Positions 1 to 53,184 of a stretch of DNA of 64,000 bases are shown here, piece by piece. Below the pieces are notes generated by a model. That model worked only from the letters and a program-made list of their open reading frames with translations, was not told the DNA's origin and ran no database searches. Location: NCBI GenBank assembly GCA_977020255.1, contig CDROCS010001116.1, positions 1-64,000 of the forward strand. Reading direction: 5' to 3'. Within the stretch, counting starts at the first letter, position 1, and each line of letters starts with the position of its first letter. The stretch is from Obrimoposthia wandeli (lineage: Eukaryota). A program made the position numbers and the translations under genes.

Positions 1-249
1 CTGATCCTTGATCTCTCATAATAGCCTTGGTAGTGGTGATTTGTACGATCAACGCGTTCTATGATCGTTCGATTCCTAAACTCAGGAACTTCAATGAAAC
101 AAGTCAAATTACTCATATAGTACGGTCTTTCCTCAATATGTTCATATATCGCTGGTACTCTGGTGCTGGTTCATCAGAAATGAAATTGGTCTTGGTATAA
201 TTGTGTAAGATTTTTTGTAAATTCATTTGACCTGTTCGTCTTGCGAGAT

Positions 250-715
250 CATGACGTTTCTTTTTTTGATCTCGGCTCTATCTTTGGGTAACAAAACAAA
301 ATGAGTAATATTAATATTATAAATCCAATGATCAGTGCGAGTATTGGTTATGAATTCTAAATACCGTAACGTACTGCTGGTATTCCTTTTACTCTTGATG
401 GTTAATATTTTAAATTTGTGCACTTTGGTTGGACATGTCACTGAGAAGCACTGGCTGGTTTGTCTAATGTAGTCTTCACATAACAACTAACTCCATAATG
501 TCCATTAAGTGTTATCATTTCGGTCGCTGGGACTATACACATTCGTCTGGACATCTTTTACACACATGATCATCGGCTCTACTGTGGGATGTCTTGATTA
601 TTTCTAGGGTGTTGTCGATTTCTCGTATAAATTATATTCGGATAGTGTCATCAATTCGGCTTTACTGGTTGGCATGGCTTGCAGTACCAATCCAATTACT
701 ACTCCATAGATCGAA
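250..715 (-). pseudogene. Second frameshifted type-I membrane protein (Cys-containing ectodomain)
   Basis: Signal-like ISIYGVVIGLVLQAMPTSKA|E (~655-715) and TM ILALIIGFIILILLILFCY (~287-345) in frames not shown in the ORF track. Confidence 0.45.
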
Positions 716-1159
716 ATCCTTGTGCAACGGTGCCTGCAGGGCCTTGACCGACTTGAGGTTTAATTATCAATCGTTTGAAGATATCTGTTTCTGGTGGATC
801 GTTTTGTTGTCTGTCGTTGTTTTTGTCTCTCGATTCCTCCTCGTCCGATAATCAACTGTACTGGTTTACCTTGTATCGTCAACTTTCCAGATCCATTTTT
901 GCGGACAAGCATGTTTTATGTCCTTCCATTGTTTCAATTATCACTCTTTTACTTCCATACTCACGTGTTTTGATGACATCGCCATCGAATATATACGTTG
1001 GTCCTTTTGTATCAGCATCTTTTTGTATTTCCTTTACAACTCGTTTTCTTCGCTTGCATCCAGCGAATGTTGTTGATATTAGATCAAGTGCGCTGTCGGT
1101 CAACTTCGTAATCTATTCGAAATTGATTCAGTATTCTGTTTTGTGGGTAAAATATCGCT

Positions 1160-1500
1160 TCATTTACTATGTTGTCCTCGATCCTTTCGTCTAGATACAG
1201 AAGCACTTTGTTTGTTTGGTCCATTTAGTCTTTTCATCTTTACAAACTGAAATCTTTTACTGTCGGTTCTCATAGATCGAAGACATTTTCGGATGATCCA
1301 TACATCAATTAGTCCTAACAATACTAATAACATCATCAGTGCCGGTGTATGGTACTTTATGGTGTAATTGTGGATTTCGTTGACCCAGGAACTATTTCCG
1401 TGGTTGGAGCCTATCTCCTGTGCTCCCGTTATCGGCATTAGACAACTTAACAAGCCTATTGCTAACAATCTTTGGTATTGAAAGCTTGGCACTGTTGTTG
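1160..1500 (-). CDS. Small type-I membrane protein segment
   Basis: Signal-like LLAIGLLSCLMPITGA|QE, sequons NSS and NYT, TM ALMMLLVLLGLIDVWII, basic tail. Confidence 0.55.
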
Positions 1501-1544
1501 TAGCTTCATTTGTTTCTCGTTGTTGTTTCCTCTTTTCGGTGTAT

Positions 1545-2005
1545 TTCTCTATTTCTCGAACGAGTAACGGTTTGAATTCCGTATTCGGTCGACTTCTTTG
1601 TTTGATGTAGACCATCGCTTCTTCTGGCGTGTGACCATGGTACTTACCAACAAGGATACACCTATGGCGCTAACATTGTACCTTTTTCTGATATATCAGG
1701 AACGCCGTTTCCTTCTGTGACTTCAGCTTGATGGTTTGAGTCAATTTCGTCAGATGTTGTTGCGCACGTTTATCTCTCGATTGAAGCATGTATGTGTGTA
1801 TCGAGTGGTGTCATCTTCAGTATTTTGACACAGACTAATTATCTCGTTTCCGACTTCAACAATGTTGATTACTCGGTTGATACTGTGGAACTTAATCCAG
1901 CAGTGTCTATATCTCCTGGATGACATAAAATACTTTTGGCATATTTGTGTAATTTTGTCGACTCCGGCTAAGAATAACCTCGGTCAACGATAATGCTTGG
2001 AGGAA
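1545..2005 (-). pseudogene. Second, catalytically degenerate DSP-like domain
   Basis: PSIIVDR.LFLAG...INRVINI...YHGHTPEEAMVYIKQRSRPN echoes the DUSP pattern. No HCxxGxxR motif is visible. Confidence 0.55.
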
Positions 2006-2059
2006 ATTCTTTTCCTTTGGATCCCTCAGGAATGTCGTCCATCCGTCTTTGTTCTTGCA

Positions 2060-2475
2060 ACAGAAGTTGGTAATTTGCCAACTGTCCCAAAAAATTAAGA
2101 TTTGGGTTTGCAATACTTTTTCTCCTGTAGGTATGTTTTAGCGCTTCTAGTACCTGTATCTGTCTATTCTTATTAGATATGCTAATATCAGAGTTGCTGA
2201 TCGAGAAATTCCTTTCTGGCAATGTACCAACACTTTTCCTTGGTTTCGGAGTTCTCTGTGAAGTATTTCGTTTGTTTCACGAACCATTCGAGAAGATTAG
2301 CATCCATTGAGTCTTTTACTCTTAATGTCATAGCTCTGATCGTCTGATATTGCGATTTGTGATTCATTGTAACGTTGATCACATATGTTATCCCTTGTTC
2401 CGTAACAGTTTCTTTTCATCTGTTGCATCCTCCACATTTCCGAGGTACAACTTACCTGGAATGATCTCACTCTTC
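2060..2475 (-). CDS. MKP-like dual-specificity phosphatase, catalytic motif intact, split by two frameshifts
   Basis: SEIIPGKLYLGNVEDA / QGITYVINVT / VKDSMDANLLEWF / GKVLVHCQKGISRSATLILAYL (2198-2224) / IANPNLNFLGQL. Confidence 0.92.
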
Positions 2476-2959
2476 ATTTGTGGCATTAATTCTGACTCTT
2501 CAAGTTTTAGTCTTTCTAATCTCTTCTCTATCTGTTCGTCGATGTTAGTTGTTTTGTTGTTTCTTTCCTCTCAGCATTCGTATTGCTGGAGGGGATATTC
2601 ATCTTTGTCTCTGATGTCTGTTCCTTTGTTGAGTCTTCTTCCGACTCGGTCTCCTCTGTGATTTATTCGTCTTTCTTGTATATTCTGTTTCACGAATTCT
2701 ATGTTTTGTCTTTTTCTGCTCTCTTTAGCGAATTCAACCTCCATGGTTCTTCCGAATCGCTCTATTATGTTATCTTCGGATTCTGTTGATTCTGTATCGT
2801 TACTTTCCGGTTCGCTGTCTTCATCAGACTCGCTCGGAAGGGTATTCTGGTATGTCTGTCTGAACTGAAATTAATGAAGGTGTTAGAATAATTGGATTGA
2901 TTTCCCTTCGTATTTGTGAATCGGATACGGTATTACACTATCTTCCTTTTAAGTATCTT

Positions 2960-3925
2960 CAACTTGGAACTGTGCTCCATAGCACATGACAATTGTTTCC
3001 AATTTACCCATGATGGACAATCCATCAAAAATAGGTAACATTCAGCTTAGATATCGGTGTCTTCGCATAATTAATTAAGTTTACTCGTATCTCGGTTGAT
3101 GACGGCCATCGATTTTTTAGTAAAATTATAATTTCGTCGTTTATCGATGTAATTACACTTGGCGCGGATGATACTATTTCAGCATGATATTTTGGCTGGA
3201 TTGAGTTGGTCACTTGTTCTCGGATCATATTGATTCTTTGTGGCTTTTTATTTTTAGCTTCCCACTTCCGGTATCCGCTGTCAATGCGTAACTCTGCCGT
3301 TGCTTTGATGATTTTATTGTTAGTCACTTCCGGATGGGTTGGCGAATGGAATCCTTCTATTACGCTCAACCTTACAGATACTTCCGTTTGATCTGTCTCT
3401 AACCGGTGAGATTCTGGTATACAACATACAATTGTCTTTCCATCAAAGTATTTTGTGTCCATCTGACAAATTATCTTTTCAGTGTCAGCGTCGATTAAAT
3501 GGACTCTCATGATATCTCTTTTCCCATGTGAATTACGTAATACCATTATTACATCGTGGTATTCTTGTTTGAGTTTTTTGGGGTACCATGCAGTATGTGA
3601 CCACCGGCCGGTTCTTTTTCTTCCTGACTGGCTAGTCCTGCTTCAGTACTGTCATAGTTCTGCCATGCAACTATGTTTGGTGTCAATGTGATTTCGATTA
3701 TCACTTTCTCAGTCGTAAACACATTGGAATTTTGATAAAGTGCTGCGACTAGTGTATTTCCGTCGTAGTATGACACTCTAAGTTCGCACAGAAATTCGTT
3801 TGTCAGTGCATCTTTCACAATGACTTCTTTAGCCACATCTGTGGGTTGTGTTTTTTCGAAAACGACTATTATCTCTTCGTCTTCTTCTAATATCTCTTGT
3901 GGTGCGATGTGTCGGATTACTTCCT
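2960..3925 (-). CDS. Three tandem IPT/TIG-like (Rel-dimerisation-type) repeats following integrase
   Basis: IRHIAPQEILEEDEEIIVVFEKTQPTDV...YYDGNTLV; HILHGTP...MRVHL...YFDGKTIVCCIP; EIVSSAPSVITSINDEIIILL...YF(D)GLSI. The shared Y[YF]DG motif shows internal triplication. Confidence 0.55.
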
Positions 3926-3929
3926 TTTC

Positions 3930-5200
3930 CTCCTGGTACTTCATTCTGAGCATACCAATTCTCGCTGGTTTTTTCTCGCTACCACTAGTCATCATGTTTA
4001 TGTAGTTCCGATCACTTACCATTCGTGTAAGTTTAATGGTATTGGTATTTGGCTTCGATTTCTGTGATCTTAACTCATATCGTGACGCATTGTCTTTATT
4101 TGGTACCAATTTGCATCGATTTGCATGTACAATCATCGGTTCCTTGTTCCGATTCTCTTCGTTGATTACTTTCAAATTTGTTGAGGTTGTCTGGATCACC
4201 TTGTATGGTCCTTTGTATGGTCTATGAAGTTTAAACGATAGACCTGGTTCGATGACTGGATAAAATATCATCACTTGATCTCCGACTCTAAATTCATGTG
4301 GTTTTGCTTTTTTGTCGTATTGTTCCTTGTAACCTTCTTGATTGAATTTCAACTTCAATCCGGCTTTGGTCCAAGCATCTTGTAACCTTTCCTTCATGAC
4401 GACAATGTATTGTTCAGTTTCTAGGTACTGAGATGTTGGCTCGGTCCACTCCAGATCCATTGGCATATTGTTCTGTCTGAGATACATCAGATAGAATGGT
4501 GTGTGACCTGTCGCCTCTCGAACTGAATTCCTGTAAGCATATAAACATGAAGGTAAATATTTATCCCAATCCTCTTGCTTATCTGAGCAATAGGATTGTA
4601 CCATCATACATAAAGTTTTATTAAACCTTTCCACCAGACCATCTGTCTGTGGGTGGTATGGTGAAGTTTGTAACTTCATGATTCCGAATATCTTCGATAC
4701 TGCTTTTATGACTTCTCCAGTGAAGTTCTTACCTTGATCCGTTAACAACTTTCTAGGTACTCCGTATCGAAATATTATCTCTTCCACTAAGATTTGCGCT
4801 ATTGTTTCAGCTTTCTGGTTCTGCATGGGGTATGCTTCTACCCATCTCGTCATGTAGTCCGTAAATACTATGACATACTTGTTTCCTTTACTTGATTCTC
4901 TCAATGGTCCCAAGCTATCCATCGCTGTGAATTCCATTGGTGCCAAGGGAACTGGCATTGGTTTCAACGGAACTTTAGTACGAGTTCCGGTGTCTTTTCT
5001 GGTTAAACATACTTTACATTGTTTACACCATTGTTTTATGTCGTCTTCCATACCATCCCAATGGTACTTCTCTTTGATTCTGGCTATTGTCTTTCGCCCT
5101 GACAGATGTCCTCCTAGTGTTCCGTCGTGATACTGATCATCACTGCTGTTTTCAATGACTTCGGAATTACTACTACTATCTTTCCGACATTATTGACAAT
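3930..5200 (-). CDS. pol: Integrase (HHCC, DDE core, GPY/F module)
   Basis: CKQC, AMDSLGPL, LTDQGKNF, YHPQTDGLVERFN, YKGPYKV. Confidence 0.96.
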
Positions 5201-5217
5201 ATACAAGATTCCTTCTT

Positions 5218-7044
5218 TTATCGAGTATTTTTCGCCATCTCATCGTTTAGATCTCCTTTCACCAACAAGTCTTTGATTAGACTCAGCTCTTCATCTTCTT
5301 TCTGTTCTTTGATGATCTCTTTGTCTATTTTACCCGTCTTTAGCAAAATCGTCAGTAGATTTGCTTCTCCTTTTTGGTCATTGGTTTCATCTTCTTCTGG
5401 AATTATGTTTCCTTTCTCGTCTACATTTGTCAATCTCGATAAACAATCTGCGTTGCCATTCGACTTTCCGGTTCTATAACGGATTTCTAGATCGAATTCG
5501 GCCAATTTTAGAAACCATCTGTTTAATCTACTCATCTCATCTCTATGTTTATATAAGAACTGTAGTGGTTTGTGATCTGTATACAGGAATACTTTTTGTC
5601 CTAGCAAATAGTGTCTGTATTGTCTACATGAATACACTATGGCTAGACATTCCTTTTCGATAACAGAGTATCCTCTTTCAGCTCTGTTTAATCCTCTACT
5701 CGCATACGCGATGACGTGTTCTCTTCCTTCGTCATCCTCTTGTCCCAATACTGCTCCTACAGCATAGTTACTTGCATCTGTCATAAGTATGAATTGTCGG
5801 TTTATATCTGGAAACGCTAATATTGGTGCTTTTATCAGTCTTTCTTTTAAATGCTCGAACGCTTGTTGGGCTTCTTTTCCCCATATGAACTTTTCATCTT
5901 TCCTTGTCAACTTTCTCAATGGTGTTGCTATATCTGAAAAATGTTCAACAAATCGTCTATAATAATTCGCAAGACCTAAAAAACTCTGTATTTTCTTAAC
6001 AGTCTTTGGCGCTAAATGCGCTTTGACTTTCTCGATCTTCGCTGGATCAGGTCGAATGCTTTCTTTCGATACTATATGTCCTAAAAATGTTACTCCTCTT
6101 TAGCCCATTCGCATTTTGTAGGTTTAACTTTTAATTTAGCGTTTTCCAGTCTTTTAAATACAACTTCAAGATTTTTTAAATGTTCTTCGAACGTTTTAGA
6201 AAATATTATTATGTCATCGATATAAACCATCGTGTTTGCACACGATGCGAGTACAAAATTCATGCAACGCTGAAATGTTGCTGGAGCTCCTGTCAGTCCG
6301 AATGGCATCTTTTCGCATTCGTACAATCCATCTCCGCAGGAAAAGGATGTTTTGTGTTTATCCTCTTCCTCTATCTCGATTTGCCAGTATCCACTCTGCA
6401 AATCTAATGTCGTAAAATAATCTGAATTACCCAATTTATCGAGCATCTCTTCGATTCTAGGTAATGGATACACATCTTTTCTTGTGATCTTGTTCAGTTC
6501 TCTGAAATCTATACAGAATCTCATTTTCCCATCCTTCTTTTTTTTGCACCAACACCACTGGTGCTGAGAATGGCGAAAAACTTGGTCTAATTACTCCTGT
6601 TTTAGACATATCTTCGATCTGACTTTTTACTTCATCTTGTAATTGTAATGGTACTCGATATGGTCTTCTTCTGACTACTTTGTCTTCTGTCAGTGGTATT
6701 GTATGTTTTATGACAGGTGTTTCTCCTATGTCATATGGATTTTTTGCAATTACTTTCGGAAATTTATGTATTAGATCAAGTAATTGTTTCTTTTCTCTAG
6801 TTGTCAGTCTTTCTGATTGAATTACTATTTCTTCGTAATCATTCGTATCTTTATCGAGTTTCATAGCACACGGTGGGATTCTCCATCTGTGTATCTTTCC
6901 CAACCTCATTCCTCTGTATAATAGAATGTCATTGTTGGTTGTATTCATCAGTCTAACTGGTATTTTATGGTTTTCGATCAGGCATACTGTACTCACAACT
7001 GGTAATTCGTATTTCTCTATGAAATCTCGTGATGGTTCGAACAC
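5218..7044 (-). CDS. pol: Reverse transcriptase and RNase H (frameshifted)
   Basis: RFCIDFRELN, YPLPRIEE, LDLQSGYWQ, MPFGL, YIDD; RNase H TDASNYAVGAVL, EKECLA, TDHKPL. Confidence 0.97.
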
Positions 7045-7099
7045 AACTGGTCCTTTATCTTCTGATAATGTGTGACCTTGAATAAGAAATTGCGATCTT

Positions 7100-7560
7100 T
7101 TACCGATTTTTAGGATTCTCTATGATTACATCAATTTGGTTTATTTGTCTGTTTGATGTGCTATCCTTCAATCTTGGATCTTGTAAATCAATACTTATCC
7201 CTTGCTGTTGTGATAGTACATCCATTCCTAAAATTGTAGGTTCAGGACATTCTTTCATGATTCTAACTGGTATAGTGATCGTATTACGTCCAATTATAAA
7301 TGTACATGGTAATATTCTCGTCACTTTTACAGGGTCTCCATTGACCGATACCAAGAATTCATCTGGTTCTGCCATTGTTCGTTTCTGTTCCTCTGTCAAA
7401 CAGTCTTCACTTACTATCGAAGCTACAGCACCTGTATCAATTAAAGCTTTTACTCTTAAATTATTTACTCTAATGATAGCTGCTGGTCGCTGTGCTCCAT
7501 TTATGTTTCCCATGTGGTATATTGTATTTATCGAATTATTACACTCTGTCAGTCCACCTT
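7100..7560 (-). CDS. pol: Aspartic protease domain 2
   Basis: KALIDTGAVASIV...ILGMDVL. Confidence 0.92.
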
Positions 7561-7985
7561 CCTATGTTTGGATAGTGAAATCTAATGCTCACTTGTCGAT
7601 CTATTATTCTTCGACAAATTGGACATGATACCATTTCATTCGCACATCTCCGACATGTTCTTACATGTCCGCATGGTAGAAAGGCAACTTCTATTTTGTT
7701 GACCATGCAAACTGCGCATTCCGGATCTTCTAGTACGTATTCTAATTCATTTATGTACTCTTTCTCTTGTTTCAATTGTACTGTCATCTTTATCTCGCAG
7801 TATTCAAAAATCGATCCGTATCCGTTTCGCGTAGTTTTTATTTTTAATTCTACCAATTCTCTGATTCTTTCTGCTTCTTTTGGATATAACCTTCTTACGA
7901 ATGACACTACCGGTGTGTCTTGTTGAGCTAAAATCTCTTTCCGTGTGATTTGGTATTCGATTATACATTCGGTTTTCTGTTCTTT
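7539..7985 (-). CDS. IAP UBA-like linker plus C3HC4 RING
   Basis: DTPVV...RIRELVELKIKTTRNGYGSIFE resembles the cIAP UBA. CAVCMVNKIEVAFLPCGHVRTCRRCANEMVSCPICR is an IAP-type RING. Confidence 0.9.
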   Translation of the reverse strand, partial: KEQKTECIIEYQITRKEILAQQDTPVVSFVRRLYPKEAERIRELVELKIKTTRNGYGSIFEYCEIKMTVQLKQEKEYINELEYVLEDPECAVCMVNKIEVAFLPCGHVRTCRRCANEMVSCPICRRIIDRQVSIRFHYPNIGRWTDRV

Positions 7986-7989
7986 TTGC

Positions 7990-8200
7990 TTTATTTTGTT
8001 TTTAAAAATACAAAATTCTGCAAAATTCATGATGTAAAATTTTCTTAGGTAGCTCAAGAGTATATCTGTCGATAATTCGTTCTTTTACACTTGTGGCATT
8101 TAATTACGTCTTTACCATCCTTATAGCAAAAAGTCCCTTTTTTGCCAATTTTTAAGTCTTGGATCTTCGAAAGTTACTTCTCGATATTGTTCGTCACATT
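7990..8200 (-). pseudogene. Degenerate or frameshifted BIR domain 2
   Basis: Across frames: REVTF...KLAKKG.FCYKDGKDVIKCHKC...HHEFC. The His-Cys spacing is not canonical. Confidence 0.55.
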
Positions 8201-8329
8201 CGTTCACTTCTCGCATAACTTCGTATATATCTTCAATTCGACTATTCATTATTACTCTTCCTGTTTTTAGAGCTGCTTCTCTTTTTAGGATCCGTCACTG
8301 TAATCGAAATCGGTGCTTTTCCCGGTTGG

Positions 8330-8586
8330 ATTTCTGGTACGTTTGACGTTTTCAGTTTCAAAAGAAATGGACAATTTGGTGCATCTCTTTTATGACGTCT
8401 CATTGGGTTTTCATTCTGTTCCCATTCTCTAAACTTTACTCTACACCATACGCATCGTACTACTATCTCCTGACCATAACTGCTTGTCGCATTTAGCATT
8501 TCTAAACCTGATCTTGCCATTTTACGTGCCATTCCTTTTGAATAGTACTGTTCTAATATATTTCGTCTCTTTCTCTCGAATCTCAT
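8330..8586 (-). CDS. BIR domain 1 of an element-borne IAP
   Basis: Exact CX2CX16HX6C signature (CVWC...H...NCPF, 8371-8454), preceded by MARSG. Confidence 0.92.
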
Positions 8587-8799
8587 GGGATCCTTTTCTG
8601 ACAGATTTACATATGTTATTTTTCTCCTCGTCGTATCTTGTGGTCCGAAATTTACATTTTTGTAGTGAAGTATCGACTTTGCTAGCGCTTCACTGTTTTT
8701 TGTCTGGGTACGAACTTCCCATACAGAACATATTGTATTTTTCCTTTTCGACTACAGGTCATCTCAACATTTTTATCTCTCTCACTGAACTGTCATTCT

Positions 8800-9130
8800 T
8801 ATAATTTTTGTTGTTTGGTAGTATAATTATTCCTTCAAACATTCGTATTACGTCCATCCCAATCATGACTGGACTACCGCAATCTGTGAATATTCTAGCA
8901 TTTAACTGTAATGCTCTTCCATCGATATTCAATGAACATTTCAGTGTTCCTTCCGACACTACATCTGTACCATTCACGTTAACAAATGTCTGTTTTCTAG
9001 GACATACTTCTCTTAATTCTTTTGATGACAAGATTTCTTTACTCAGTACTGATACTGCAGATCCGGTATCAACTTCGGCAAGATATTCTCTTCCGTTCAA
9101 TGTTACTGCTACTTGTGGTGGAGCATTTGG
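8800..9130 (-). CDS. Aspartic protease domain 1 (retropepsin)
   Basis: LAEVDTGSAVSVL...VMIGMDVI. Confidence 0.88.
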
Positions 9131-9236
9131 ATTCTCATTTGATATCCTAGACTTCAGAATTCTTCTGGAATTATCTTTTTGTCTTTTTCCTCTGCTTGTG
9201 GAATTTCAGTGTAGCTCACTTTAGGCCATCTTATCA

Positions 9237-11340
9237 TTAAGATGCCTCTCTTGAACTTTTCCTTCTCTCCTCCTTTCGTTCCTTCATTGCATATCGCCTT
9301 AACGCCACTTCCTCTTTGTCTGGTAACGGAATCTTTGGTTTTCCTGGTATCTTTGCATATACTCCTGGACTATCATTATCGTCGTCGTTATCGTCTCGAT
9401 AGTTTCTTGGTTCTCTCATCATGGTTCTCGTTTGGTGTTGTTCCTTCTTGAGGGCTCGCAACTCGTTCTCGTGATGATGATGGTGCATTAGATATTTTGC
9501 TAAAAATGGAAAACATCCAATTATAAGTTGCCAGGTGATTCCGGTTATCCTGTATAAACTATACGTAGACAACACCTGGGCTATAATTACCTGCACAAAT
9601 TTAATTATAACATAAATACCTATGATACCCGAAAATAATTGTCCTAAAACAAGGAATTTCCCCCACATCTTTCTAAGTGTCTGATGTGCTGCTTCCTTGA
9701 AATGACTTGGCGATAATAACATATCGAAATTCGCATATCTCGCTCCTGGCGGTAATGCTCGATGTACCATCTCCGTAAGTACTCTGGCTCTTCTTACTGG
9801 AAACATTATTTCGTTCCACGCCGCTTTTAAATCTTTTTCATTGTACAATCCTGCGTTCTCCATATTTTCCACCGCTTGGAATTTCATTTTACCTTTAAGA
9901 TTAGTCATTCTTATCATCGCTGGGGTTTTCGTTGGCTTTCGATCAGGTAACGTTATCCATAGATTATTCGTCATCTGATATTCAGGTGCCATTATATTAG
10001 AGCAGCTGATTTCTTTAGTTGGAGTGTCTTTTGGAAGCAACATTCTCGTGATTGGTTCAACAAAAAGATCTTTTAAATTATACGTTACTGCCAATTCGCT
10101 CGTACATCGATCTGTTTTTCTCAACTGTACCTCTACTTTATTACACTTGTAAGTATACTATACTTCTCCCATGGTTTTAGCAAATACTCCTTCATCCAAG
10201 GGTAATAATGGTGCTACCATGTCTGGATTCGTAATAGCTAATGCTAACTTTGTTCTTACGATCTCTTTGTTTAGCTGGCAATCTCTTTCTATCATCATCC
10301 GATATAACTGTTCCATTTGCATCAATCCTTTATGATAATAGAAATCAATTTTATTATTAAAATACGTGTGTAGCTGCATATCTTTTGGTTTTAGCTTGGT
10401 TTCTGCCAATGCTATTGCTTCTTTAGACAAAACTATTCCTGGATAGTTTGTAGTACTAACAGTCATTCCGCATCGCGCTTTGTTTCTCTTTTTAATAAAT
10501 ATCAATCCTTCTTCTATTGATGTTGCCATTAACAGTGTAGGTGTCTTTGTCATTGGAATTGGTCTTGTTTCATTGAGCAATCCTTTTCCTACTTTATTAT
10601 ACAGGAATCCTTTCTCCATCTTTATTATACAGGAATCCTTTTATTTTATTAAAGCTAATCTCTTTCAAAAATACTAAAGAGCATTGCTTCGGATTTATGT
10701 TATACATAATTTTGGCTTCCCCTGTAAAACAGGATGCATCTGTCATTTTACATTCTGGATACTTCATCATTAGTTGTGTCTTTTTATCAAAATTGGCGGT
10801 CCATGTTTTTAATTCGATCTTGTAAGTTACATCCATTACTAACTCAGATACTTTGGTTCCACGCACGTTTTTGTTTCTCCGTCACAAGATCCATCGGCCC
10901 ATCGTTGTCCGACTCTCGTGACTGTTTCGTATCGTCTCACTCCAATTTTACTTCAGGTTTGTAATTTTGTCTACCTCTATTGTTCCCGTTCGAAATGCAT
11001 CTTCGCAATCTCTCGGCAAACCTTATGTGCCTTGTACGGTGTGGTAGGTGTGATTTCTGACATAAAAACTTCTATGACCACAATAGAATTCGTGATAACT
11101 TGAATGGATTGAACATTCTTTCACTTCTACTTGTACTTTATCAACATCCTGATACACAAAGTAGTTTTCAACACCTTGAACTTCTAGTTTTGACGGTTGT
11201 GATTCTGGACAGTCTTCGCTGTCAAGCAGTGAATACTTTTGTCCCATCTTTGGTATGCTACAGTCATATGCTATCAATCCTGATGCCTGTTGCATTCCCA
11301 TAAACATTACTAACATCATCATCATCATTGTTGTGGACAT
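9237..11340 (-). CDS. env: Envelope: chuvirus (Jingchuvirales)-type glycoprotein, ~700 aa, in 4-5 frameshifted pieces
   Basis: Signal peptide then LIAYDC, FYCG, TNYPGI, TYFNNK, DCQL, GEV..YKC, AGLY..D, IMFP and a C-terminal TM region. The order and spacing match chuviral G motifs as I recall them. Confidence 0.85.
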
Positions 11341-11399
11341 ATTTGGTTGATTGTTTCTCTCTTTCGGACGGTATTGTTTATTTTCCTTTGACGATTCTC

Positions 11400-11857
11400 A
11401 TGACATTGTTCGTCATCGTCTTCATTCATTTCCACAATGGTTTTAGCGTAGTCACTTAATTTTGCCCAACCTCCATTTTCGTCGATTCGTCTCTGTAATA
11501 CATTCTCGATCAAAATACATTGCTTCATTTATTCCTTGTTTGACTTCGTGAGGTTGGCTCGTTCGTTCCGTCAATTGGAAACATAGATATGTGATTGCTG
11601 TAATTAACTTTTATTTGTAGTTTGGTTTCCACATAATCTCGCTAAAACTTCACCGTCATAAAATCTATCTATCGATGCATGGTATACATGATTCGCGGTC
11701 ATTCTCTTTACTGCAGACATCTGTGATCTGACTGCTTTAGTCAAATTGTCTCGTTATATCGGTTGTTTCATCTCTGTACATTTTAAACAACTTCGGCTTC
11801 ACTTGCCTGAGAATTCCCGTAAGTATATCTTTACTACTTGGAGTTTCCGAATTCATA
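11400..11857 (-). pseudogene. Possible Bcl-2-fold domain split by frameshifts
   Basis: Reconstructed EVKQGINEAMYLIENVLQRRIDENGGWAKLSDY resembles the BH2 region (WIQENGGW). A hydrophobic helix KLITAITYLCFQL lies upstream. Confidence 0.4.
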
Positions 11858-12112
11858 TCACCTCTGATATCTTCTATTCCTTTCTGCACTATACTGCTCC
11901 AATGACGCTGCTAACTGTCCAATGCTTAGATGTCTCTCTTCATCAGTTTGTGGTGCAGTTAGAACGTTTCGTAATATACTTTCGCCTTTTCTAGGTCTTC
12001 CAGGTCCTCTTCGAAAATACTGATACTCAGTTTGATTCTCTCCCTGGATCATACGGTTCATCATTATACTGTATCTCTTGACTTGGTCCTTCTTCATGGC
12101 CAATCTCTTCAC
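11858..12112 (-). CDS. AT-hook-containing fragment, probably a frameshifted continuation of the Ubl ORF
   Basis: RRGPGRPRKG motif. Confidence 0.6.
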   Translation of the reverse strand: MKRLAMKKDQVKRYSIMMNRMIQGENQTEYQYFRRGPGRPRKGESILRNVLTAPQTDEERHLSIGQLAASLEQYSAERNRRYQR

Positions 12113-12178
12113 TTTGTCTCATCATCTGCTCTGCTTGTCTATCTTTGTATGCAGCATGCCAAATTGGTGAATCTAAAT

Positions 12179-12742
12179 CTACAATTTCGAGACTTCGTCT
12201 TCTCCTACTAGTTGGGTTACGGTTTCGTTTTGTCTCACTTGGTTAGCTGTATCCGTGACTTCATCTTGTCTGATTGGAATTATATCTGCTGGTGGCACCT
12301 CGACCACTGGAGTTGTCAACTCATTTTCTAAATTCATGTCTTGTAATTCAGTTACGTACGGTTCTGGTGTGGATGTCTTGTTCCAAGCTTCAGCTACATC
12401 ATTATCTCCGCTTTCGCTTGAACTGTCTAAAATTTCTATAGGCGTTTTTATCATTTCTAACGCAGAATTCAATATCTCGGTTAATCCTTCATTATCTACT
12501 AACTCTTGACGTCCTACAGTGATGACATCAATTTTTTCCTCTAATTCATTTCCTATCGGATATCCAAACTCGACTGGTACGTCCTCATCATCTAGTGATC
12601 TCCCTTTATAATGGAACAACATATTCATTCCATCAATTTCAAGTTTCTCAGCCAACTTTTTCCGAATCGTTTTCATTGTTTGATACACGTTAAGTTTTTC
12701 ATGTATTATCTGTCCGGAAATTAATCGAAGTGAAATTTTCAT
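12179..12742 (-). CDS. Ubiquitin/SUMO-like domain protein with acidic tail; ATG overlaps the gag stop (ATGA)
   Basis: MKISLRLISGQIIHEKLNVYQTMKTIRKKLAEK...LFHYKGRSLDDEDVP...KIDVI aligns by eye with ubiquitin and SUMO beta-grasp patterns. Confidence 0.7.
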   Translation of the reverse strand: MKISLRLISGQIIHEKLNVYQTMKTIRKKLAEKLEIDGMNMLFHYKGRSLDDEDVPVEFGYPIGNELEEKIDVITVGRQELVDNEGLTEILNSALEMIKTPIEILDSSSESGDNDVAEAWNKTSTPEPYVTELQDMNLENELTTPVVEVPPADIIPIRQDEVTDTANQVRQNETVTQLVGEDEVSKL

Positions 12743-14991
12743 CGTTCCTTTTGGTTTGATCTCTGTACATAACGACCATAACCTTTCAGTAGTCCTCGGG
12801 GTACTTCTTTGTAACCCAAGTTATCATGACTATGTTTAACCAATTCTGCACGCACTTCTTCCAATCGGTGCACTTTAATTGTTTGCAATTTGGCCAGAAC
12901 TTCTGGAGCTTCACTCGTTTCATCTAACGGTTGATTTAACGTCTCCTTAGCTTCACTAATTATCTTTTTTACATTTTCCATACTCGTAGCATTTCTCGCT
13001 GCTTCCACATGATCAGTCATAGGTTGTGCGTTACACGTTTTCTCTATTGGTGTCTCATACGCTTCTAATATTCTATTCATTAAATCATTCATCTCTTCTC
13101 TCGAATGTAGACTTTTCTCTTGTTTCGACAACGTAGATGAATTCGCCATCTTTGTATGTGGTGAATCTTTAATTATTCCCAACATTCGTTCAAATTTACT
13201 ATCACTATCTTCAAAATCTATTTCGCGTCGAAGCTCGGTCTCGCGATTCCTATCACTGTCATCGCTTACATAACTAAAATTTCCTTTCGGTTTCGGCGAA
13301 CTCTCACGACTATTTGTCTTGTCAACATTATTATTATTATATCTACCGGAATTATTATATCTCTCAGCTCCTTGCTGTCCTACGTAATTATTGTATCTCT
13401 CAGCTCTATGCTGTCTGTATGCATAGTTATTATATCTACCTGGTGACTGTTGTCTATCTGTATACTGATTATTCAGTCTCCATGGTTGGGGAGTATATCC
13501 ACCACCTCTATTCCATGGCGGAGGTGAATTATATCCTCTATAATTATTTCCAAAATTATTATTACCGAAATTATTATTTCCAAATCTGTTAGTTCCGAAC
13601 TCTTTACTTCTCGTACAATCTCTCGAATAATGACCCATTTGTTTACACGTGTAACACATTATTCTCCCTCGAATATCTATCTTATTTTGTTCATCTTCGA
13701 ACTGTACTCGACGACTATTCTGTCTATTATCATAGCGTCCTCTAAAATCATTTCTTCGGAAATTCGATTCAAAACCGCTTCCTCGATTATTGAATCTTCC
13801 GTCACTATTTCCTGCATTATTTCCAAATCGAGAGTCACTTCGCTCTCCTCTGTTGGCGTTATAATTCCTATCGTCTCCTCTCAAGGTTGGCGATTTCGAA
13901 TTATCTCTATTAAATCTATTCCTGGAATCATCTCTATTTCTATTCCACGAATCATTATTATTTCTACCTCTTGAATCATCTCGATTCCTGTTCCAAGACT
14001 CACTATTATTTCTACCTCTCGAATCATCTCGATTCCTACTTCGGAAATTATCTCTATTTCCGTTACTGGATTCATCTACTTTTTCGAACTTATTTTGTCC
14101 ATAACTTCGATTCTGAAAATTACTCGGTTCTGTTTTATTCACGAAGACCTTTGTCTTATCGTCGTCACCTGCAGTCATTGCGTAGATTGCCAATGCTGCG
14201 TTATTCTTTATATTTTTCTCAATCTCTCTCGCCTTTCGCACGGCGTTATCAAAATCATTTGTATCCGATACTGCTAATAACACTTTAATATCCTTTTTCA
14301 ATCCTCCTCTAAATATATCTAACAAAACCTCTGCCATTTCATTTTGGTTCCGGTCATTTTCCGCTGCTTGTGCTTCTTGAGGTACAGGAATACCGTCCTG
14401 ATTTCTCATTATTCTTCTTGGGTACGCTCTTGCGGCCAAGGTTCTCAAAACATACGCGTATTCATTCACGCCTTCATCATGTTTCTGTTTCCGTTCTCTC
14501 ATGAGTCGCTTATTTACTTTGGCTAAGTCTCCTAATACCAATTTTCCAATAAAAGCATTTTCCAACGTTGGCCAATCTAAACGTTCTGCTTCTGTCAAAT
14601 GTTTATACACTTCAAGTGCTAATCCGGTTAAATGTGCCTGTACTCTAACACATTTTTCTTTATCGTTCCATCCTTGAACATCTGCACAACTCGAATATTC
14701 TGCGAGGAAGTCACAAATACTTTCCTCATCTCCTTTAAACTTTGTAATCTGCAATGATCCTGAAAAGTTGGGTCTCAACGTCGCATTTAAAGCTTGTGCC
14801 AACTGCTCGGCATTCATTTCACCTACATTATTTCCTGCATTAATATCTGCTTGAGCTCCTGGTTGAGCCATATTTTCAACTATAACTTCTTCAACTATTT
14901 CTTCAATATTATTCAATGGAACTTCCTCAATCACTACTGGATTGGCAATTTCAAATTCTTCTTGGTCTATGTCACCAAATAATTCAGTCAA
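12739..14991 (-). CDS. gag: Gag polyprotein (capsid region, N/R/G-rich repeats, single CCHC zinc knuckle)
   Basis: Retrotransposon capsid-like KFKGDEE...GWNDKEK...HLTGLA. Zinc knuckle CYTCKQMGHYSRDC. The frame is open upstream to ~15243 and the first in-frame ATG is at 14871. Confidence 0.93.
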   Translation of the reverse strand: MTELFGDIDQEEFEIANPVVIEEVPLNNIEEIVEEVIVENMAQPGAQADINAGNNVGEMNAEQLAQALNATLRPNFSGSLQITKFKGDEESICDFLAEYSSCADVQGWNDKEKCVRVQAHLTGLALEVYKHLTEAERLDWPTLENAFIGKLVLGDLAKVNKRLMRERKQKHDEGVNEYAYVLRTLAARAYPRRIMRNQDGIPVPQEAQAAENDRNQNEMAEVLLDIFRGGLKKDIKVLLAVSDTNDFDNAVRKAREIEKNIKNNAALAIYAMTAGDDDKTKVFVNKTEPSNFQNRSYGQNKFEKVDESSNGNRDNFRSRNRDDSRGRNNSESWNRNRDDSRGRNNNDSWNRNRDDSRNRFNRDNSKSPTLRGDDRNYNANRGERSDSRFGNNAGNSDGRFNNRGSGFESNFRRNDFRGRYDNRQNSRRVQFEDEQNKIDIRGRIMCYTCKQMGHYSRDCTRSKEFGTNRFGNNNFGNNNFGNNYRGYNSPPPWNRGGGYTPQPWRLNNQYTDRQQSPGRYNNYAYRQHRAERYNNYVGQQGAERYNNSGRYNNNNVDKTNSRESSPKPKGNFSYVSDDSDRNRETELRREIDFEDSDSKFERMLGIIKDSPHTKMANSSTLSKQEKSLHSREEMNDLMNRILEAYETPIEKTCNAQPMTDHVEAARNATSMENVKKIISEAKETLNQPLDETSEAPEVLAKLQTIKVHRLEEVRAELVKHSHDNLGYKEVPRGLLKGYGRYVQRSNQKER

Positions 14992-15483
14992 ATTAAAACT
15001 GCCGGTTGAAACCGCTGATTGATCAACGCCTCTTTCTGATACGTTTTCTTCGACTCTAGTCTTTTCTGTTACTTTGTTATCTGTTTGGGGAACCTGTTCA
15101 ATTCGGTTAACTTTATTATTATTTATCTCTTCCTTGGGAATCTGACTTTGTCTTCTAGTATTATACGCGGGTCCTTTTCTATTATCCGTTGTCTTATCAA
15201 TTATGTATTCGTTTACGATATCAATATACTTATTATTTTTATCTTATTTCACAATTCTTATTTTACGATTTTTTATCTCTTTAATTAGTTCGAGGACAGA
15301 GTCTCCCGACTTAACCTATTCAATTAATTACTTCGAGTATCAATCCACTCGATTCTCACTTTATCAATTTATTTACGATTTTATCTTTTTAATTAGTTCG
15401 AGGACAGAGTCTCCCGACTTAACTTATTCAATTAATTACTTCGAGTATCAATCCACTCGATTCTCACTTATAAAATTTACTGA

Positions 15484-16263
15484 CTCGAGGAACAAATCCA
15501 CTCGACTTCTCAAAACTTATCAAATTCTTACTTCGAGGAACGAATCTACCCGATTTCTCAACACTTATCAAATTCTTAACTTCGAGGAACAAATCTACCC
15601 GATTTCTCAACACTTATCAAATTCTTAACTTCGAGGAACAAATCTACCTGATTTCTCAACACTTATCAAATTCTTAACTTCGAGGAACAAATCTACCCGA
15701 TTTCTCAACACTTATCAAATTCTTAACTTCGAGGAACAAATCTACTCGATTTCTCAACACTTATCAAATTCTTAACTTCGAGGAACAAATCTACCCGATT
15801 TCTCAACACTTATCAAATTCTTAACTTCGAGGAACAAATCTACCCGATTTCTCAACACTTATCAAATTCTTAACTTCGAGGAACAAATCTACCCGATTTC
15901 TCAACACTTATCAAATTCTTAACTTCGAGGAACAAATCTACCCGATTTCTCAACACTTATCAAATTCTTAACTTCGAGGAACAAATCTACTCGATTTCTC
16001 AACACTTATCAAATTCTTAACTTCGAGGAACAAATCTACCCGATTTCTCAACACTTATCAAATTCTTAACTTCGAGGAACAAATCTACCCGATTTCTCAA
16101 CACTTATCAAATTCTTAACTTCGAGGAACAAATCTACCCGATTTCTCAACACTTATCAAATTCTTAACTTCGAGGAACAAATCTACCCGATTTCTCAACA
16201 CTTATCAAATTCTTAACTTCGAGGAACAAATCTACTCGATTTCTCAACACTTATCAAATTCTT
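15484..16263. repeat. 49-bp tandem array (16 copies) in the 5' leader
   Basis: Unit TTCGAGGAACAAATCTACCCGATTTCTCAACACTTATCAAATTCTTAAC, starting at 15532, 15581, 15630 ... 16218. It is preceded by two related 108-bp units at 15289 and 15397. Confidence 0.97.
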
Positions 16264-16289
16264 ATCTCAATTTACTTATATCTTCTTCT

Positions 16290-16560
16290 GAAACTTATTC
16301 TCAATTGTCTATATTCTTCTGCTGAAACTTATTCTCAATATTTCTGAAACTTATTCTCAATATATGAAACTTATTCTTAATATCTGAAACTTATTCTTAA
16401 TATCTGAAACTTATTCTCAATATCTGAAACTTATTCTTAATATCTGTACTTATTCTATTTACCTGAAACTTATTCTCAATTATCTGCAACTTATCTGAAC
16501 TTATTCTATTCACCTGAAACTTATTCTCAATTTTCCAAAACTTATCTGAACTTATTCTAC
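16290..16560. repeat. ~20-bp degenerate tandem repeat just downstream of the PBS
   Basis: (TATCTGAAACTTATTCTYAA)n. Confidence 0.85.
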
Positions 16561-16585
16561 GTGAATTCGCTGTGTCCGACGAGCT

Positions 16586-16604
16586 ATCCTCACTCGGGGC
16601 ACCA
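16586..16604 (-). promoter_or_regulatory. Primer-binding site complementary to the 3' end of elongator tRNA-Met
   Basis: Sense TGGTGCCCCGAGTGAGGAT. The plus strand ATCCTCACTCGGGGCACCA matches the animal elongator tRNA-Met 3' end including CCA. It sits 8 nt from the LTR end. Confidence 0.9.
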
Positions 16605-17097
16605 CTTTAATATGTTGGGGTTTCTATACGAAACTTGGTATAGAGCCTCTTGACTGTGCGGAGGTCCCCAACGTGAGTTCGATTAGAAGCAGGTCTTAAA
16701 GTTGGTCGTGGCCTACTTAGTGTTATGGTTGCCTAATCTCTTGTACTATCTGAAGGTATTTGATTTGATGTCTCTTAGTCTGAAGGGTGTAAAAACAACT
16801 TGTTCTAATGTAGGAAATTGTTTATTCAAAATTCACGTAACTAACACCACAATACGTTTATGTACGTATTTCTAAAAAGTATGATAAAATTCCTAAAGGA
16901 CTTCTGTGAGTCTCTACAAGAAGTGGGGATGAACCACGTATCGATTTTACGTTCAGGTGATTAAGTTTCTTAGTTTTAGTCTTCTTACTCAGGTTGGTTA
17001 ATCTATAACGCAACTCTCTTAAATTTCTTCGCTCCTACTTCTTATCTCTAGCTACAATTTCTTGGTTCCTTACTCTCTCTGTGTGTGTTTGACCCGA

Positions 17098-17526
17098 ATT
17101 GTCTATTGTAGACAAGGGATCTCCTAAAAACCTAATTGTCAAGATGACAATGAAAACTTACTCCTAATTGTCAACTATGGACAATGAACGAACCGAATTG
17201 TCAGCTAGTGGACAATGAGTCTTACCGAATTGTCTACTAGGGACAATGAATATTTATCCGAATTTCCAACTAGGGGAAATGAATGAACCTAATTGTCAGC
17301 TAGGGACAATGAATCTTACGGGAAAAACGTCTGGTAGGTTTCCTAATTGTCGCTGGGGACAATGAATAAATGTCCGATCCTAATTACCAACTAGGGGCAA
17401 TGATTGTGTTAACGAGACAGTGATCCTAATTGCCAGCTAGGGGCAATGAATTTGTGTATTATTAAGAAAATGTAGAATTACCAACTAGGGGTAATGAATA
17501 TATCCTAATTGCCTACTAGGGGCAAT
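17098..17526 (-). repeat. Array of 12 short hairpins with covarying stems inside the LTR
   Basis: Units are ATTGTC-N5-8-GACAAT, with variants ATTTCC/GGAAAT, ATTGCC/GGCAAT and ATTACC/GGTAAT. Most loops contain CTAG. Spacers vary in length. Confidence 0.9.
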
Positions 17527-17649
17527 GAATGAACCTAGTCGGTGGTCTTACCAGTTACTCGAGATTCCTAAACGCGGTGGGATGTCCGATGCTGTTTCCG
17601 ATATCGTCTTCTCGCTCAGCCTTAGTCTTTTGGATACTGTCGGATCGAG

Positions 17650-18070
17650 TCTTTTGGGATACTCAGATATACTTTGGATATTCAGATATACTTTGGATAT
17701 TCAGATACACTTTGGATATTCAGATACACTTTGGATATTCAGATACACTTTGGATATTCAGATACACTTTGGATATTCAGATACACTTTGGATATTCAGA
17801 TACACTTTGGATATTCAGATACACTTTGGATATTCAGATACACTTTGGATATTCTTTCAAATATACTTTGGTTACTGTCTTTCAAATATAATTTGGTTAC
17901 TGTCTTTCAAATATACTTTGGTTACTGTCTTTCAAATATACTTTGGATACTGTCTTTCGAATATACTTTGGTTACTGTCTTTCAAATATACTTTGGTTAC
18001 TGTCTTTCGAATATACTTTGGTTACTGTCTTTCAAATATACTTTGGTTACTGTCTTTCAAATATACTTTT
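17650..18070. repeat. 19-bp tandem repeat grading into a 25-bp tandem repeat within the LTR
   Basis: (TTTGGATATTCAGATACAC)n followed by (TTCAAATATACTTTGGTTACTGTCT)n. Confidence 0.95.
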
Positions 18071-18152
18071 CTTTTCGGCTATACTTTTCCGCTCAACCTG
18101 CAGTCAGGGAGTTGATTCTGAATTTGTGTTTTCTGTCTTCAAAACCTCTGCC

Positions 18153-18158
18153 TTTATA
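18153..18158 (-). promoter_or_regulatory. Candidate LTR TATA box (sense TATAAAGG); predicted start site near 18122
   Basis: TATAAA ~450 nt inside the LTR 5' end, with an Inr-like TTCAGAAT ~30 nt downstream. A sense AATAAA at 16821-16826 would give a long R region. Confidence 0.45.
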
Positions 18159-18689
18159 CGAAACTTCCTGTCAGTCAACGACAGCTGAAATGAAATTAAA
18201 AGTTATTCGACTGCACAAAATGTGCTTACCTTTTCCTTGATTGACGGTTTGATTGCTGGAGAATATTCTTCCTGTCAGTCAACGGCAGCTGAAAAAACTC
18301 AAATTGATTTTACTGCACGAAATGTGCTTACCTTTTTTTTCTTGATTGACGGTTTTAATTAACCGTTTTTCTTTTAATTAATTCTTATTTTTTGTCGTCC
18401 TTGTTAATTAACTTTAAACTTTTATATATTTTCGCATAATACACGACCTTCGTGGTCCTCCTAATTTTACCCTAAATTTCACTAATTTTACTTTTAAAAC
18501 TTAATTTAATATTTTAATTTAATTTTCGACCTTGCTTTCAAGGATTTTTATTTTAGTATTTAATCGACTAAAATATTTAATTTTCTTAATTCTCAACCTT
18601 AACACCTTTATTGAAAGACAAAGTTATAATTTTTAAACGCAAATCTTTGGTTTGTATACCTAGCCAGTTAAGAAAATATCTGTCCTCAG

Positions 18690-21018: not shown

Positions 21019-22177
21019 TATTTTTTTTTCACAAATGTAGGAACTTTTTATTGTACAGATTTTTTTTGTCATCTCACCCTGTCTTTCATTTTATTGTCTG
21101 TGGACAGAGACTCTTATATATTCAATGAATATATATATCTAAAAATATCTTCATACTAACATTTGATTTTTTTAACTAATTAGAATTTATCTCGTAGTAT
21201 ATAAACCATACACTTTATGTTAGCTAATAATTTGATTATGACTCCATTAGAAATATTTCAGGAGTTACAAAAGTACCCCAACCTTTTCAATGGTACGTTA
21301 AATCATAGTTTGAACTGTACATGAATCCAGAGATTATTATTGAGAGAATAAATATCCTTTGTGAATACTATTTCAAAATTTATTTTGTTAAATTTTCAAT
21401 TTAATTTTTTTATTAACTCAAGGTTATTTCAAACCTCAAGATGTTATTATTGAATTAAAAGAAACTGATGATAATGAAGTTGAAAATTTTGATATAATCT
21501 AATACATTTTAGAACTATATAGTTTATGATAAAAGCGTAAATATTGAGTTGGTGCCGTGGTAGCTGTTTGGTATTGCAGGAAAAAGGATTTTATGCGAGG
21601 TAATGGCTACATTAAATTATATAAAAATATATAGGTAATTGAAATAATTGAAATAAAACATTATTCTTAAAATAAATAAACAAAATAAATTTAAACCAAA
21701 ATAATATTGAGTTAAAATAAATTGAAACCAAAAAAGTGAATTAAAATTAAATTGAATCAAAAAAGTAAATTTAAATAATTTAAAAAAAACATTTTTTTAA
21801 AATAAATTAACAAAATAAATTTAAACCAAAATAATATTGAGTTAAAATAAATGGAAACAAAAAAAGTGAATTAAAATTAAATTGAATTAAAAAAAGTAAA
21901 TTTAAATAATTTTAAAAAAAACTTTTTTTCCCTCTTGCAAAAAAACAAAATCTAATATAAAAAACCCATACAAAAAATGTTTAAAATTCGGTTTCTAACG
22001 ATTAAAGAAATCCTTTCTGAAAGTGGGTTTTTCTGGAATAGAAAACCCCATATAAATTAGTGTAAAGTATACTTTCCCAAACACGAGAGCTAGATAACAG
22101 TCCTAATCCTATTCCTCTCCTCTAAAATAAACACATCAGACATGAATCAAAGATTTCATCATCTATTTCGGCTCCAG

Positions 22178-22642
22178 GTTCAAATAATCAGCTGGTTCGA
22201 TGACCCCAAAGACAGGGCACTGCTGGATCTAATTCCGTATTTCGAGCGTATGGCCAACTCGAACTCTGTAATCAACTTCCTGCAGCAAGAGATGACGCCC
22301 CCGACCGCAACGTGGCCAGTGACTGTGACTTCCCAAAGCCTACCATACAACAAGTCAGGAACAGCTGCTGCTTCGATGAGTCCGCCAAGCTTCTCTAACA
22401 GCCCCATAACCAGCGTGTCGCCCACTGACAACCACGCTATTCTGCCTTCAGTCCTCAATAGTCTCTCACCCGCACCTGTCACCACCAAGAGGTTAAGCAA
22501 CTCATCTAAGAATCGATTTGGAAATGTCCCGCCTTCGTTACGATCGCTCTTCTCACGCTCGTCCAAGCCACAGTTATCATCTACTGAAAGTACCCAGCAT
22601 GTAAACCAGTTGCATCTATCTTCTGGTAAATCATCTTTTAAG
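22178..22642 (+). CDS. CTDSP: CTD small phosphatase (SCP/NIF family), penultimate exon
   Basis: Acceptor ctccag|GTT and donor AAG|gtatga. VQIISWFDDPKDRALLDLIPYFE matches the C-terminal end of the CTDSP1/2/L phosphatase domain and is followed by a Ser/Pro-rich extension. Confidence 0.85.
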
Positions 22643-22821
22643 GTATGAAAAAACTCTATATAACGTTAAGTTTTTACTTTACTAAATATTTAACAAATAA
22701 TATTTTTGAAAATAAGAATTTTTCGATCATTTTTATATTCGAAAAGTAATCAATTATTTTAGCATACCATATGCGGCTTAAGCTCCTACATATATCAAAC
22801 TTAATAAGTTTCACTTATAAG

Positions 22822-41715: not shown

Positions 41716-42035
41716 CTATAGAAAGGGTACTGCCGACCATCACTATCATTGACCATGGTGTGTCTGCTGCTCTTCAGTGGATGGAACTCCCAGTAGCTGC
41801 TGCCAATGTCACCATAACGATTCTCCAGGTACATACGGTCGCAGGCCTGCACGAGGCCAATACTCCAGTTCCGATCCGTCTCGCCAGCACTGATGGCCAG
41901 CTTCACCTTGCAGCGGAAGTGCTGACTCTCATACTGTAGCAAATTGGAGGTCTCATTGGTTTTGGTGGACGTCTTCTCATCGTAGTAGACTCGCACGCTG
42001 TTCACCTGTATGTTGCTAAGACCGAACTTGGTCAT
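41716..42035 (-). CDS. FAM78: FAM78 family gene, first visible coding exon (true start may be upstream)
   Basis: HFR, WSIGLVQAC, RYGDIGSSYWE, DSDGRQYPFY, with donor AG|gtatgt. Confidence 0.9.
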
Positions 42036-51415: not shown

Positions 51416-51642
51416 GAGTAACTGTTTATAAACAAATAGAGAACAATTATATAAAATAAATTTGCAATGCATTTTAAGAAGTTGATAGTGAAACGTAAAC
51501 GTAAAGTAAAAGCAAGACCTAAGAAATAAAAAATAAAAAAACAATAATTAAGAAAAAATAAGTGAATAAATTAATTTAGTTCGAAGTAAAAAAAAATTAA
51601 ATAACTTTGAATATAAACAATATTAAACATGAACTTTTATTT

Positions 51643-51975: not shown

Positions 51976-52063
51976 ACAATTATTTATAAAATCAGTTAAA
52001 GATATGGGTGCTAACCCTTCTTTATCTAAATTTAAATTTTCTTTCTATTCAAATTGTTGTAAT

Positions 52064-53170: not shown

Positions 53171-53184
53171 TGAAATCTTTGTAA

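Follow-up and report, generated by a model that had tools for sequence, protein, structure and literature searches.

A constrained dual-specificity phosphatase domain and its pseudophosphatase neighbour in the polyprotein of an abundant Burro-like gypsy element of Obrimoposthia wandeli

The window analysed here comprises bases 1–64,000 of contig C1116 in the 1.35-Gb assembly of Obrimoposthia wandeli. A giant LTR retrotransposon occupies bases 1–18,600 on the minus strand, where the GC content is 35–39% (25–31% in the remainder). Its 5′ LTR (16613–18604) is about 2.0 kb long and has TGT...ACA ends and internal tandem repeats. A primer-binding-site-like motif with a TGG start (16588–16604), which we take to match elongator tRNA-Met, lies 8 nt inside the LTR and is followed by a 5′ leader (15258–16587) with 49-nt and 20-nt tandem repeats. 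Taken together, the tandem repeats at 15258–16545 and 17616–18100 have units of 49, 20, 19 and 25 nt, and both unit and number differ between copies. The coding part begins with a Gag region containing one CCHC knuckle (12739–15243), a ubiquitin-like domain supported by a weak match (12179–12820, E 0.017; 0.017–0.048 overall) and an Env of the Monjiviricetes fusion glycoprotein type (PF24664, 9237–11397), which sits between gag and pol. Then come aspartyl protease 1 (8759–9205), an IAP-like module (7539–8751) made of BIR (8242–8751) and RING (7539–8084), aspartyl protease 2 (7100–7561), RNase H with reverse transcriptase (RT) (5218–7119), and the integrase (H2C2, rve and C-terminal domain) together with the first TIG-like repeat (3549–5189). 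The two aspartyl proteases bracket BIR-RING, and the DTG motif is kept in both.

The region 3′ of the integrase includes three IPT/TIG-like repeats (2931–3914; about 3669–3914, 3343–3594 and 2931–3177), an acidic linker (2493–2870), two domains of the dual-specificity phosphatase (DUSP) type, D1 (2040–2483) and D2 (1508–2020), and a post-D2 region (291–1471) with hydrophobic, membrane-like segments that runs off the contig start. The three repeats are alike (shuffle controls 0, 1 and 0 of 2000) and their best atlas matches are IPT/TIG clusters at 0.90; Pfam gave no family for them save a weak DBB (Dof/BCAP/BANK) match, and we treat their assignment to IPT/TIG domains as a lead only. About 900 aa follow D2 (P0067), with four hydrophobic, membrane-like segments, no Pfam family and no atlas match; this region could be a second membrane protein. 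Beyond the window start, a separate ORF of 227–229 aa lies directly before the 3′ LTR (L081:6141–6827, minus strand); it was present in the five complete copies examined and matched no Pfam family.

Several features of the window lie outside the element. Fragments at 51005–56162 with an rve integrase (E 2e-6) and a weak A32-like ATPase match suggest a decayed Polinton/Maverick-type element, and a further partial BIR domain (E 1.4e-5) was found at 45873–46340 (plus strand). Two probable host exons were also recognized: one at 22094–22648 (plus strand) with a weak NIF-phosphatase C-terminal match, and one at 41688–42098 (minus strand), which has no Pfam match and presumably resembles FAM78-type proteins.

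The assignment of the element to Ty3/gypsy follows from TG..CA LTR ends, a target-site duplication, a primer-binding site and the order PR-RT-RH-IN. Three complete copies measured 22.9–23.4 kb. The LTRs are 1.7–2.0 kb long, with pair identities of 99.2–99.7% in four copies and 96.7–97.8% in the copy on C76, and target-site duplications of 4 bp were seen on C737, C903 and C3418. Based on Pfam, the polyprotein order is CCHC knuckle, ubiquitin-like domain (weak), Monjiviricetes fusion protein, protease, BIR (E 3e-10), RING, protease, RT, RNase H, integrase and DSPc twice. The reading frame is open over 1,266 codons in copy L002, taking in the integrase C-terminus, D1, D2 and sequence after them, and over 4,633 aa on C399, from Gag through D2. 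On C76, only one stop interrupts the frame that holds Gag and everything up to the C-terminus (1,631 + 3,669 aa = 5,300 aa). D1 is a domain of the single polyprotein of about 5,300 aa of a Burro-like gypsy element of about 23 kb.

In the window copy, the DUSP motifs of D1 span 2079–2471 on the minus strand, in four segments over three frames, with frame breaks near 2403, 2277 and 2165. The motif SEIIPGKLYLG... lies at 2424–2471, GITYVINVT at 2368–2394, the general-acid Asp loop VKDSMDANL at 2281–2319, the P-loop VHCQKGISRS (core HCQKGISRS) with the next helix at 2174–2239, and ANPNLNFLGQL at 2079–2111. The first-pass annotation had described a DUSP downstream of the integrase with a general-acid Asp, an HCxxGxSRS loop and a PNxxFxGQL tail, and every motif it quoted was found on the minus strand; its join of three frames was right about the frames, and the pieces number four. 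A second, degenerate DUSP domain at about 1508–2020 had been missed. A single window fragment already gives a Pfam DSPc match (E 1.7e-4), which falls short of the curated cut-off. The DSPc search that had been proposed gave 140 bits for the unbroken natural copy L002 (E 4.7e-41, cut-off 33.5) with two DSPc stretches, a score that excludes a chance match. Both the P-loop HCxxGxxRS and the general-acid Asp are present, and all 10 columns invariant in a 77-sequence alignment are kept, though D1 is more than 50% diverged from any known DUSP. At the level of sequence, membership of D1 in the dual-specificity phosphatases (DSPc) is confirmed.

The broken frames of the window copy probably reflect assembly errors at the contig end, and real decay of this copy may be the cause instead. 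Compared with three other copies, the window had about 36, 16 and 17 gaps in the first three kilobases and 0–8 per kilobase at 3–10 kb; this rise toward the contig end makes assembly error the likely source. Over 14 kb, just 4 gap events separated two well-placed copies; two others near contig ends showed 56 and 130. Frameshifts were seen even in copies with 99% identical LTRs. Short-read contigs from four runs of one sample, which cannot speak for the one window copy, cover the region at great depth and mostly contradict the window indels near 2134 and 2402.

D2 is 21% identical to D1 and is likewise broken in the window copy. At the P-loop position it reads IYQKKGTMLA, where D1 has VHCQKGISRS, so that His, Cys and Arg are lost; on these replacements D2 is classed as a catalytically dead DUSP. 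An alignment-guided model of D2 (pLDDT 83) matched DUSP structures, including STYX (2r0b); since the model was built on a DUSP alignment, this match is not independent, and the independent evidence is the Pfam DSPc match at E 1.1e-6. A single-sequence AlphaFold prediction of D1 and D2 together reached pLDDT 39 and was discarded.

A DNA search with window bases 1900–2700 gave 3,091 first-look candidates, and the 40 that were scored were 93–96% identical. All five DUSP motifs fell in one frame in 23 of the 29 non-window loci fetched, which had been picked for closeness to the window. A sample independent of the DUSP was drawn from an integrase 20-mer with 6,185 assembly matches (reversed control 0), which replaced another 20-mer carrying a window-specific variant and matching 111 places. 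It consists of 58 early entries, with a few entries at contig starts and tandem duplicates left out. D1 was present in 53/58 of these copies, in the same frame and position, about 2.2 kb downstream of the integrase, which bears out the earlier placement and the expectation that other copies carry the domain. A separate gene nested in the element was rejected on the same count: what had been taken for a hidden gene shares the integrase's frame in other copies and forms part of one polyprotein. One stop-free D1 match of at least 135 aa was found in 39/58 copies; by a stricter test, three D1 motifs in one stop-free frame, the count was 32/58, compared with 28/58 for an RT control. The stretch from integrase to D1 was wholly open in only 4/58, so most assembled copies look broken, through decay or assembly error. 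Among 49 loop matches, 46 had an intact P-loop, and in one more the change was to a flanking position. A search with RT returned only near-identical copies of the element. Across the assembly, a degenerate intact-P-loop pattern had 5,221 matches (reversed control 0); if most of these places are full-length copies, the element would make up about a tenth of the assembly. The family is young and recently spread, with a median D1 divergence of 5% and a maximum of 17% in the 58-copy sample. Tandem duplications of the element occur on C6, and several nested or tandem copies with 85–93% identity and LTR sequence in common lie at C1756:30001–67123 (L031–L034).

To describe selection, each variant among the 58 copies was assigned by comparison with the commonest codon of its column. 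Counted as variant types and not as independent events, shared variants (those present in at least two copies, most of them passed on by replication) gave pN/pS values of 0.12 for D1 (bootstrap 0.07–0.18), 0.10 for D2 (0.06–0.16), 0.11 for RT, 0.06 each for RNase H and integrase, 0.15 for the TIG tail, 0.21 for the post-D2 region and 0.25 for the acidic linker, the least constrained region. Singletons ranged from 0.43 to 0.74 across regions and stood at 0.69 in D1, where shared and singleton variants differed (Fisher p 2e-8). Leaving out CpG contexts altered pN/pS little. The constraint on D1 was no different from that on RT, RNase H and integrase combined (p 0.25), and exceeded that on the adjacent acidic linker (p 0.005; D2, p 0.002). 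Among variants in at least four copies, the core enzymes were stricter (0.00–0.01) than D1 (0.10) and D2 (0.06). The catalytic columns of D1 were kept almost throughout (Asp in 51/52 entries, Cys in 50/51, Arg in 53/53), and no variant in the Asp and P-loop columns examined was common to two copies. D1 is under purifying selection at the level of RT, as had been anticipated, D2 is equally constrained, and judged by selection D1 is functional.

Where D1 came from was considered by sequence comparison. Its best PDB sequence match, taken from copy L002, is DUSP10/MKP5 (E 1e-23). Among 1.84 billion protein representatives at 50% there was no close relative; the top identity, 48%, belonged to a rhodanese-plus-DUSP protein, P0074, and D1 was about 44% identical to Lingula DUSP10. 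Genome searches with DSPc or the full P0074 were flooded by element copies. The rhodanese part of P0074 as query returned three host MKP loci and zero element copies; these rhodanese-plus-DUSP genes lie on C934, C2055 and C2967 (L097–L099, L158–L166), and two of the three have HCWAG loops and group with P0074. D1 is 46% identical to the MKP on C934 and 40% and 35% identical to the other two. Its last 27 residues match P0074 at 23 positions and the C934 protein at 21, the remaining 157 rows of the alignment reaching at most 17, and 10 of its first 12 residues agree with both; the middle is no closer to C934 than to other DUSPs. The C934 gene includes an exon for the rhodanese part, and introns interrupt its catalytic domain; D1 is intronless. 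From these comparisons D1 was probably captured from the host gene on C934, most likely, though this is not proven, as the 3′ half of an MKP mRNA that the host had already spliced. D2 would derive from D1 by tandem duplication.

A derivation of D1 from a virus or another organism, as for the env of the element, which is of RNA-virus type, appears improbable. It would agree with the trees, which leave D1 apart from the host MKPs and weigh against a C934 origin: in both trees, one fast with 160 rows and one under a mixture model with 44, D1 fell outside the MKP clade (support 95/84 in the careful tree), among atypical DUSPs. An AU test did not reject the grouping of D1 with C934 and P0074 (p 0.27). 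However, the top overall and terminal-segment identities belong to these same two sequences. Moreover, in pattern searches, which find close relatives only, viral contigs held no close relative of D1 and metagenome contigs a single distant match (34%).

As to function, D1 is very probably an active enzyme, as predicted from its intact catalytic motifs. We suggest the following role, which in our estimate has about an even chance of being correct: a fixed and selected D1, likely from a host MKP mRNA and predicted to be active, would damp host stress-kinase (JNK/p38/ERK) signalling. The polyprotein of open copies includes a catalytically complete D1 and its dead twin. The proteases of the element may release the TIG-DUSP-pseudoDUSP block, or the hydrophobic segments behind it may tether it to a membrane. 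D1 would dephosphorylate host MAPK, damping stress and death signalling where the element is expressed, and BIR-RING together with D1 would let the host cell survive, its alarm signals quiet, while the element replicates. The presence of BIR-RING in the same polyprotein favours this damping of stress-kinase and death signals.

The likeness to MAP-kinase phosphatases claimed in the first-pass annotation stands for the closest solved structures, which are DUSP10/MKP5, and fails for the docking domain and the loop. According to the accessible text of PMC5056954, MKPs recognize MAPKs via an N-terminal KIM of rhodanese fold and carry the signature (I/V)HCXAGXXR(S/T/G). A Pfam scan of the polyprotein gave no rhodanese hit, so no KIM docking domain, and the P-loop VHCQKGISRS of D1 departs from the signature by a K at the A position; on both counts the MAPK specificity of D1 stays a prediction. 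To reach its target, D1 would need D2, the TIG repeats or its location. That D1 acts on host MAPK, with D2 or the TIG repeats making up for the missing docking domain, is a prediction which we regard as evenly balanced. The fuller scheme is more tentative: a working MAP-kinase phosphatase, a pseudophosphatase docking partner and an IAP module would jointly shut off JNK/p38 stress and death signalling, encoded at thousands of loci.

An active, selected D1 might instead have Gag, integrase or the Env tail of the element itself as substrates and so switch maturation or integration, by analogy with poxvirus VH1. This is rather unlikely, although several observations are consistent with it: D1 lacks a KIM, as do VH1-type atypical DUSPs, it falls among atypical DUSPs in the trees, its place in the polyprotein would co-package it with Gag and Pol, and selection on it is as strong as on RT. 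However, Burro1–4, which are close relatives in architecture, are described without a phosphatase, so the basic cycle needs none, the other cargo (BIR, RING, ubiquitin-like) points to host pathways, and the closest sequences are MKPs. Less likely still is a binding decoy or scaffold, in which D1-D2 and the TIG repeats would bind host phosphoproteins and hold them back, or would work at a membrane on substrates other than proteins (phosphoinositides, RNA ends). Such a role would suit a D2 that has lost Cys and Arg yet is constrained like D1, as well as the membrane-like segments directly after D2 and the TIG-like repeats before D1, but the catalytic residues of D1 are all kept in nearly every copy and the sequence matches point to protein DUSPs rather than to phosphatases of lipids or RNA. 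Finally, the idea that D1 and D2 are passengers, captured sequence kept open only for downstream translation, is largely refuted and very improbable: pN/pS is well below 1 across the whole ORF, acidic linker included, and the family is young, but read-through demands only the lack of stops and would not purge missense changes, both domains are more constrained than the adjacent linker, and D1 keeps all invariant columns despite its divergence from known DUSPs.

The element and its DUSP domains can be set beside what is known of related systems. In the accessible text of PMC6431247, Burro/GYPSM1 of planarians is an element of more than 30 kb with thousands of copies, tandem repeats and a single polyprotein of about 5,000 aa that includes an N-terminal Gag, a ubiquitin-like domain, an in-frame mononegavirus-like env between gag and pol, BIR, RING and PR-RT-RH-IN. 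The same text puts forward the idea that Burro-like elements interfere with apoptosis and signalling in the host, and states that some of the cargo domains were detected only with HHpred (PMC6431247). Judged by this published description, the wandeli element is alike in its single giant polyprotein, its env in frame between gag and pol, its BIR, RING and weak ubiquitin-like cargo, its copy number in the thousands and its tandem repeats. It differs in its size of about 23 kb, in having two protease domains and in the roughly 1,700 aa past the integrase (TIG-like repeats, DUSP, pseudo-DUSP, membrane segments). Pfam, where the Burro review needed HHpred for some domains, gave no match to MATH, BCL2-like, ankyrin or dUTPase in the wandeli element.

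D1 shares with DUSP10/MKP5 and the host C934 protein the same Asp, HCxxGxSRS and PNxNFxGQL motifs, and differs from MKPs in lacking the rhodanese/KIM domain and introns, in being embedded in a polyprotein, in the K for A and in its place outside the MKP clade. Poxvirus VH1, baculovirus PTP and the polydnavirus PTPs are free-standing phosphatase genes of DNA viruses. Like them, D1 is a mobile-element phosphatase without a KIM, and host signalling or the proteins of the virion are its plausible targets; unlike them, it forms part of a retroelement polyprotein and has a pseudophosphatase in tandem. Among cellular proteins, STYX and MK-STYX are pseudophosphatases with a DUSP fold that lack the catalytic Cys, and Cdc14-type proteins have tandem inactive and active DSP domains. 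D2 resembles STYX and MK-STYX in having the DUSP fold without the catalytic Cys, and differs from them and from the Cdc14 type in that His and Arg are also gone, that it follows the active domain and that it shares so little identity with D1.

The statement that no LTR retrotransposon is known to encode a phosphatase held in our search of the literature on retroelements and Burro, within the accessible texts and with Grohme et al. 2018 and Repbase outside its scope: no such element was found, and the word "phosphatase" occurs 0 times in the accessible text of PMC6431247, PMC8532177 and PMC6338049. A DUSP fused to a retroelement was found neither among proteins of 696–2216 aa, nor among those above 2216 aa (weak evidence), nor among the 50% representatives (best 48%), nor, by pattern search, in viral or metagenome contigs; the protein searches in the two length classes returned no Burro sequence either. 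One fish protein of 696–2216 aa with RT plus DUSP is probably a gene-model fusion of LINE type. Elements of this type are already known, as is their carrying of host-like domains, and the phosphatase/pseudophosphatase module appears to be new.

The known cargo of giant elements consists of binding or ubiquitin-pathway domains, whereas D1 is a signalling enzyme with more than 5,000 intact active sites in the assembly. One practical consequence is that copies of the element dominate any count of the DUSP family in this genome, where a first look gave 14,212 candidates. At 140 aa, D1 is also a small, assayable handle on the meddling with host apoptosis and signalling proposed for Burro in the accessible text of PMC6431247. 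Expression of D1, should it occur, could alter MAPK signalling in any cell that de-represses the element, which in the likely host group, planarians, bears on stem-cell and regeneration work.
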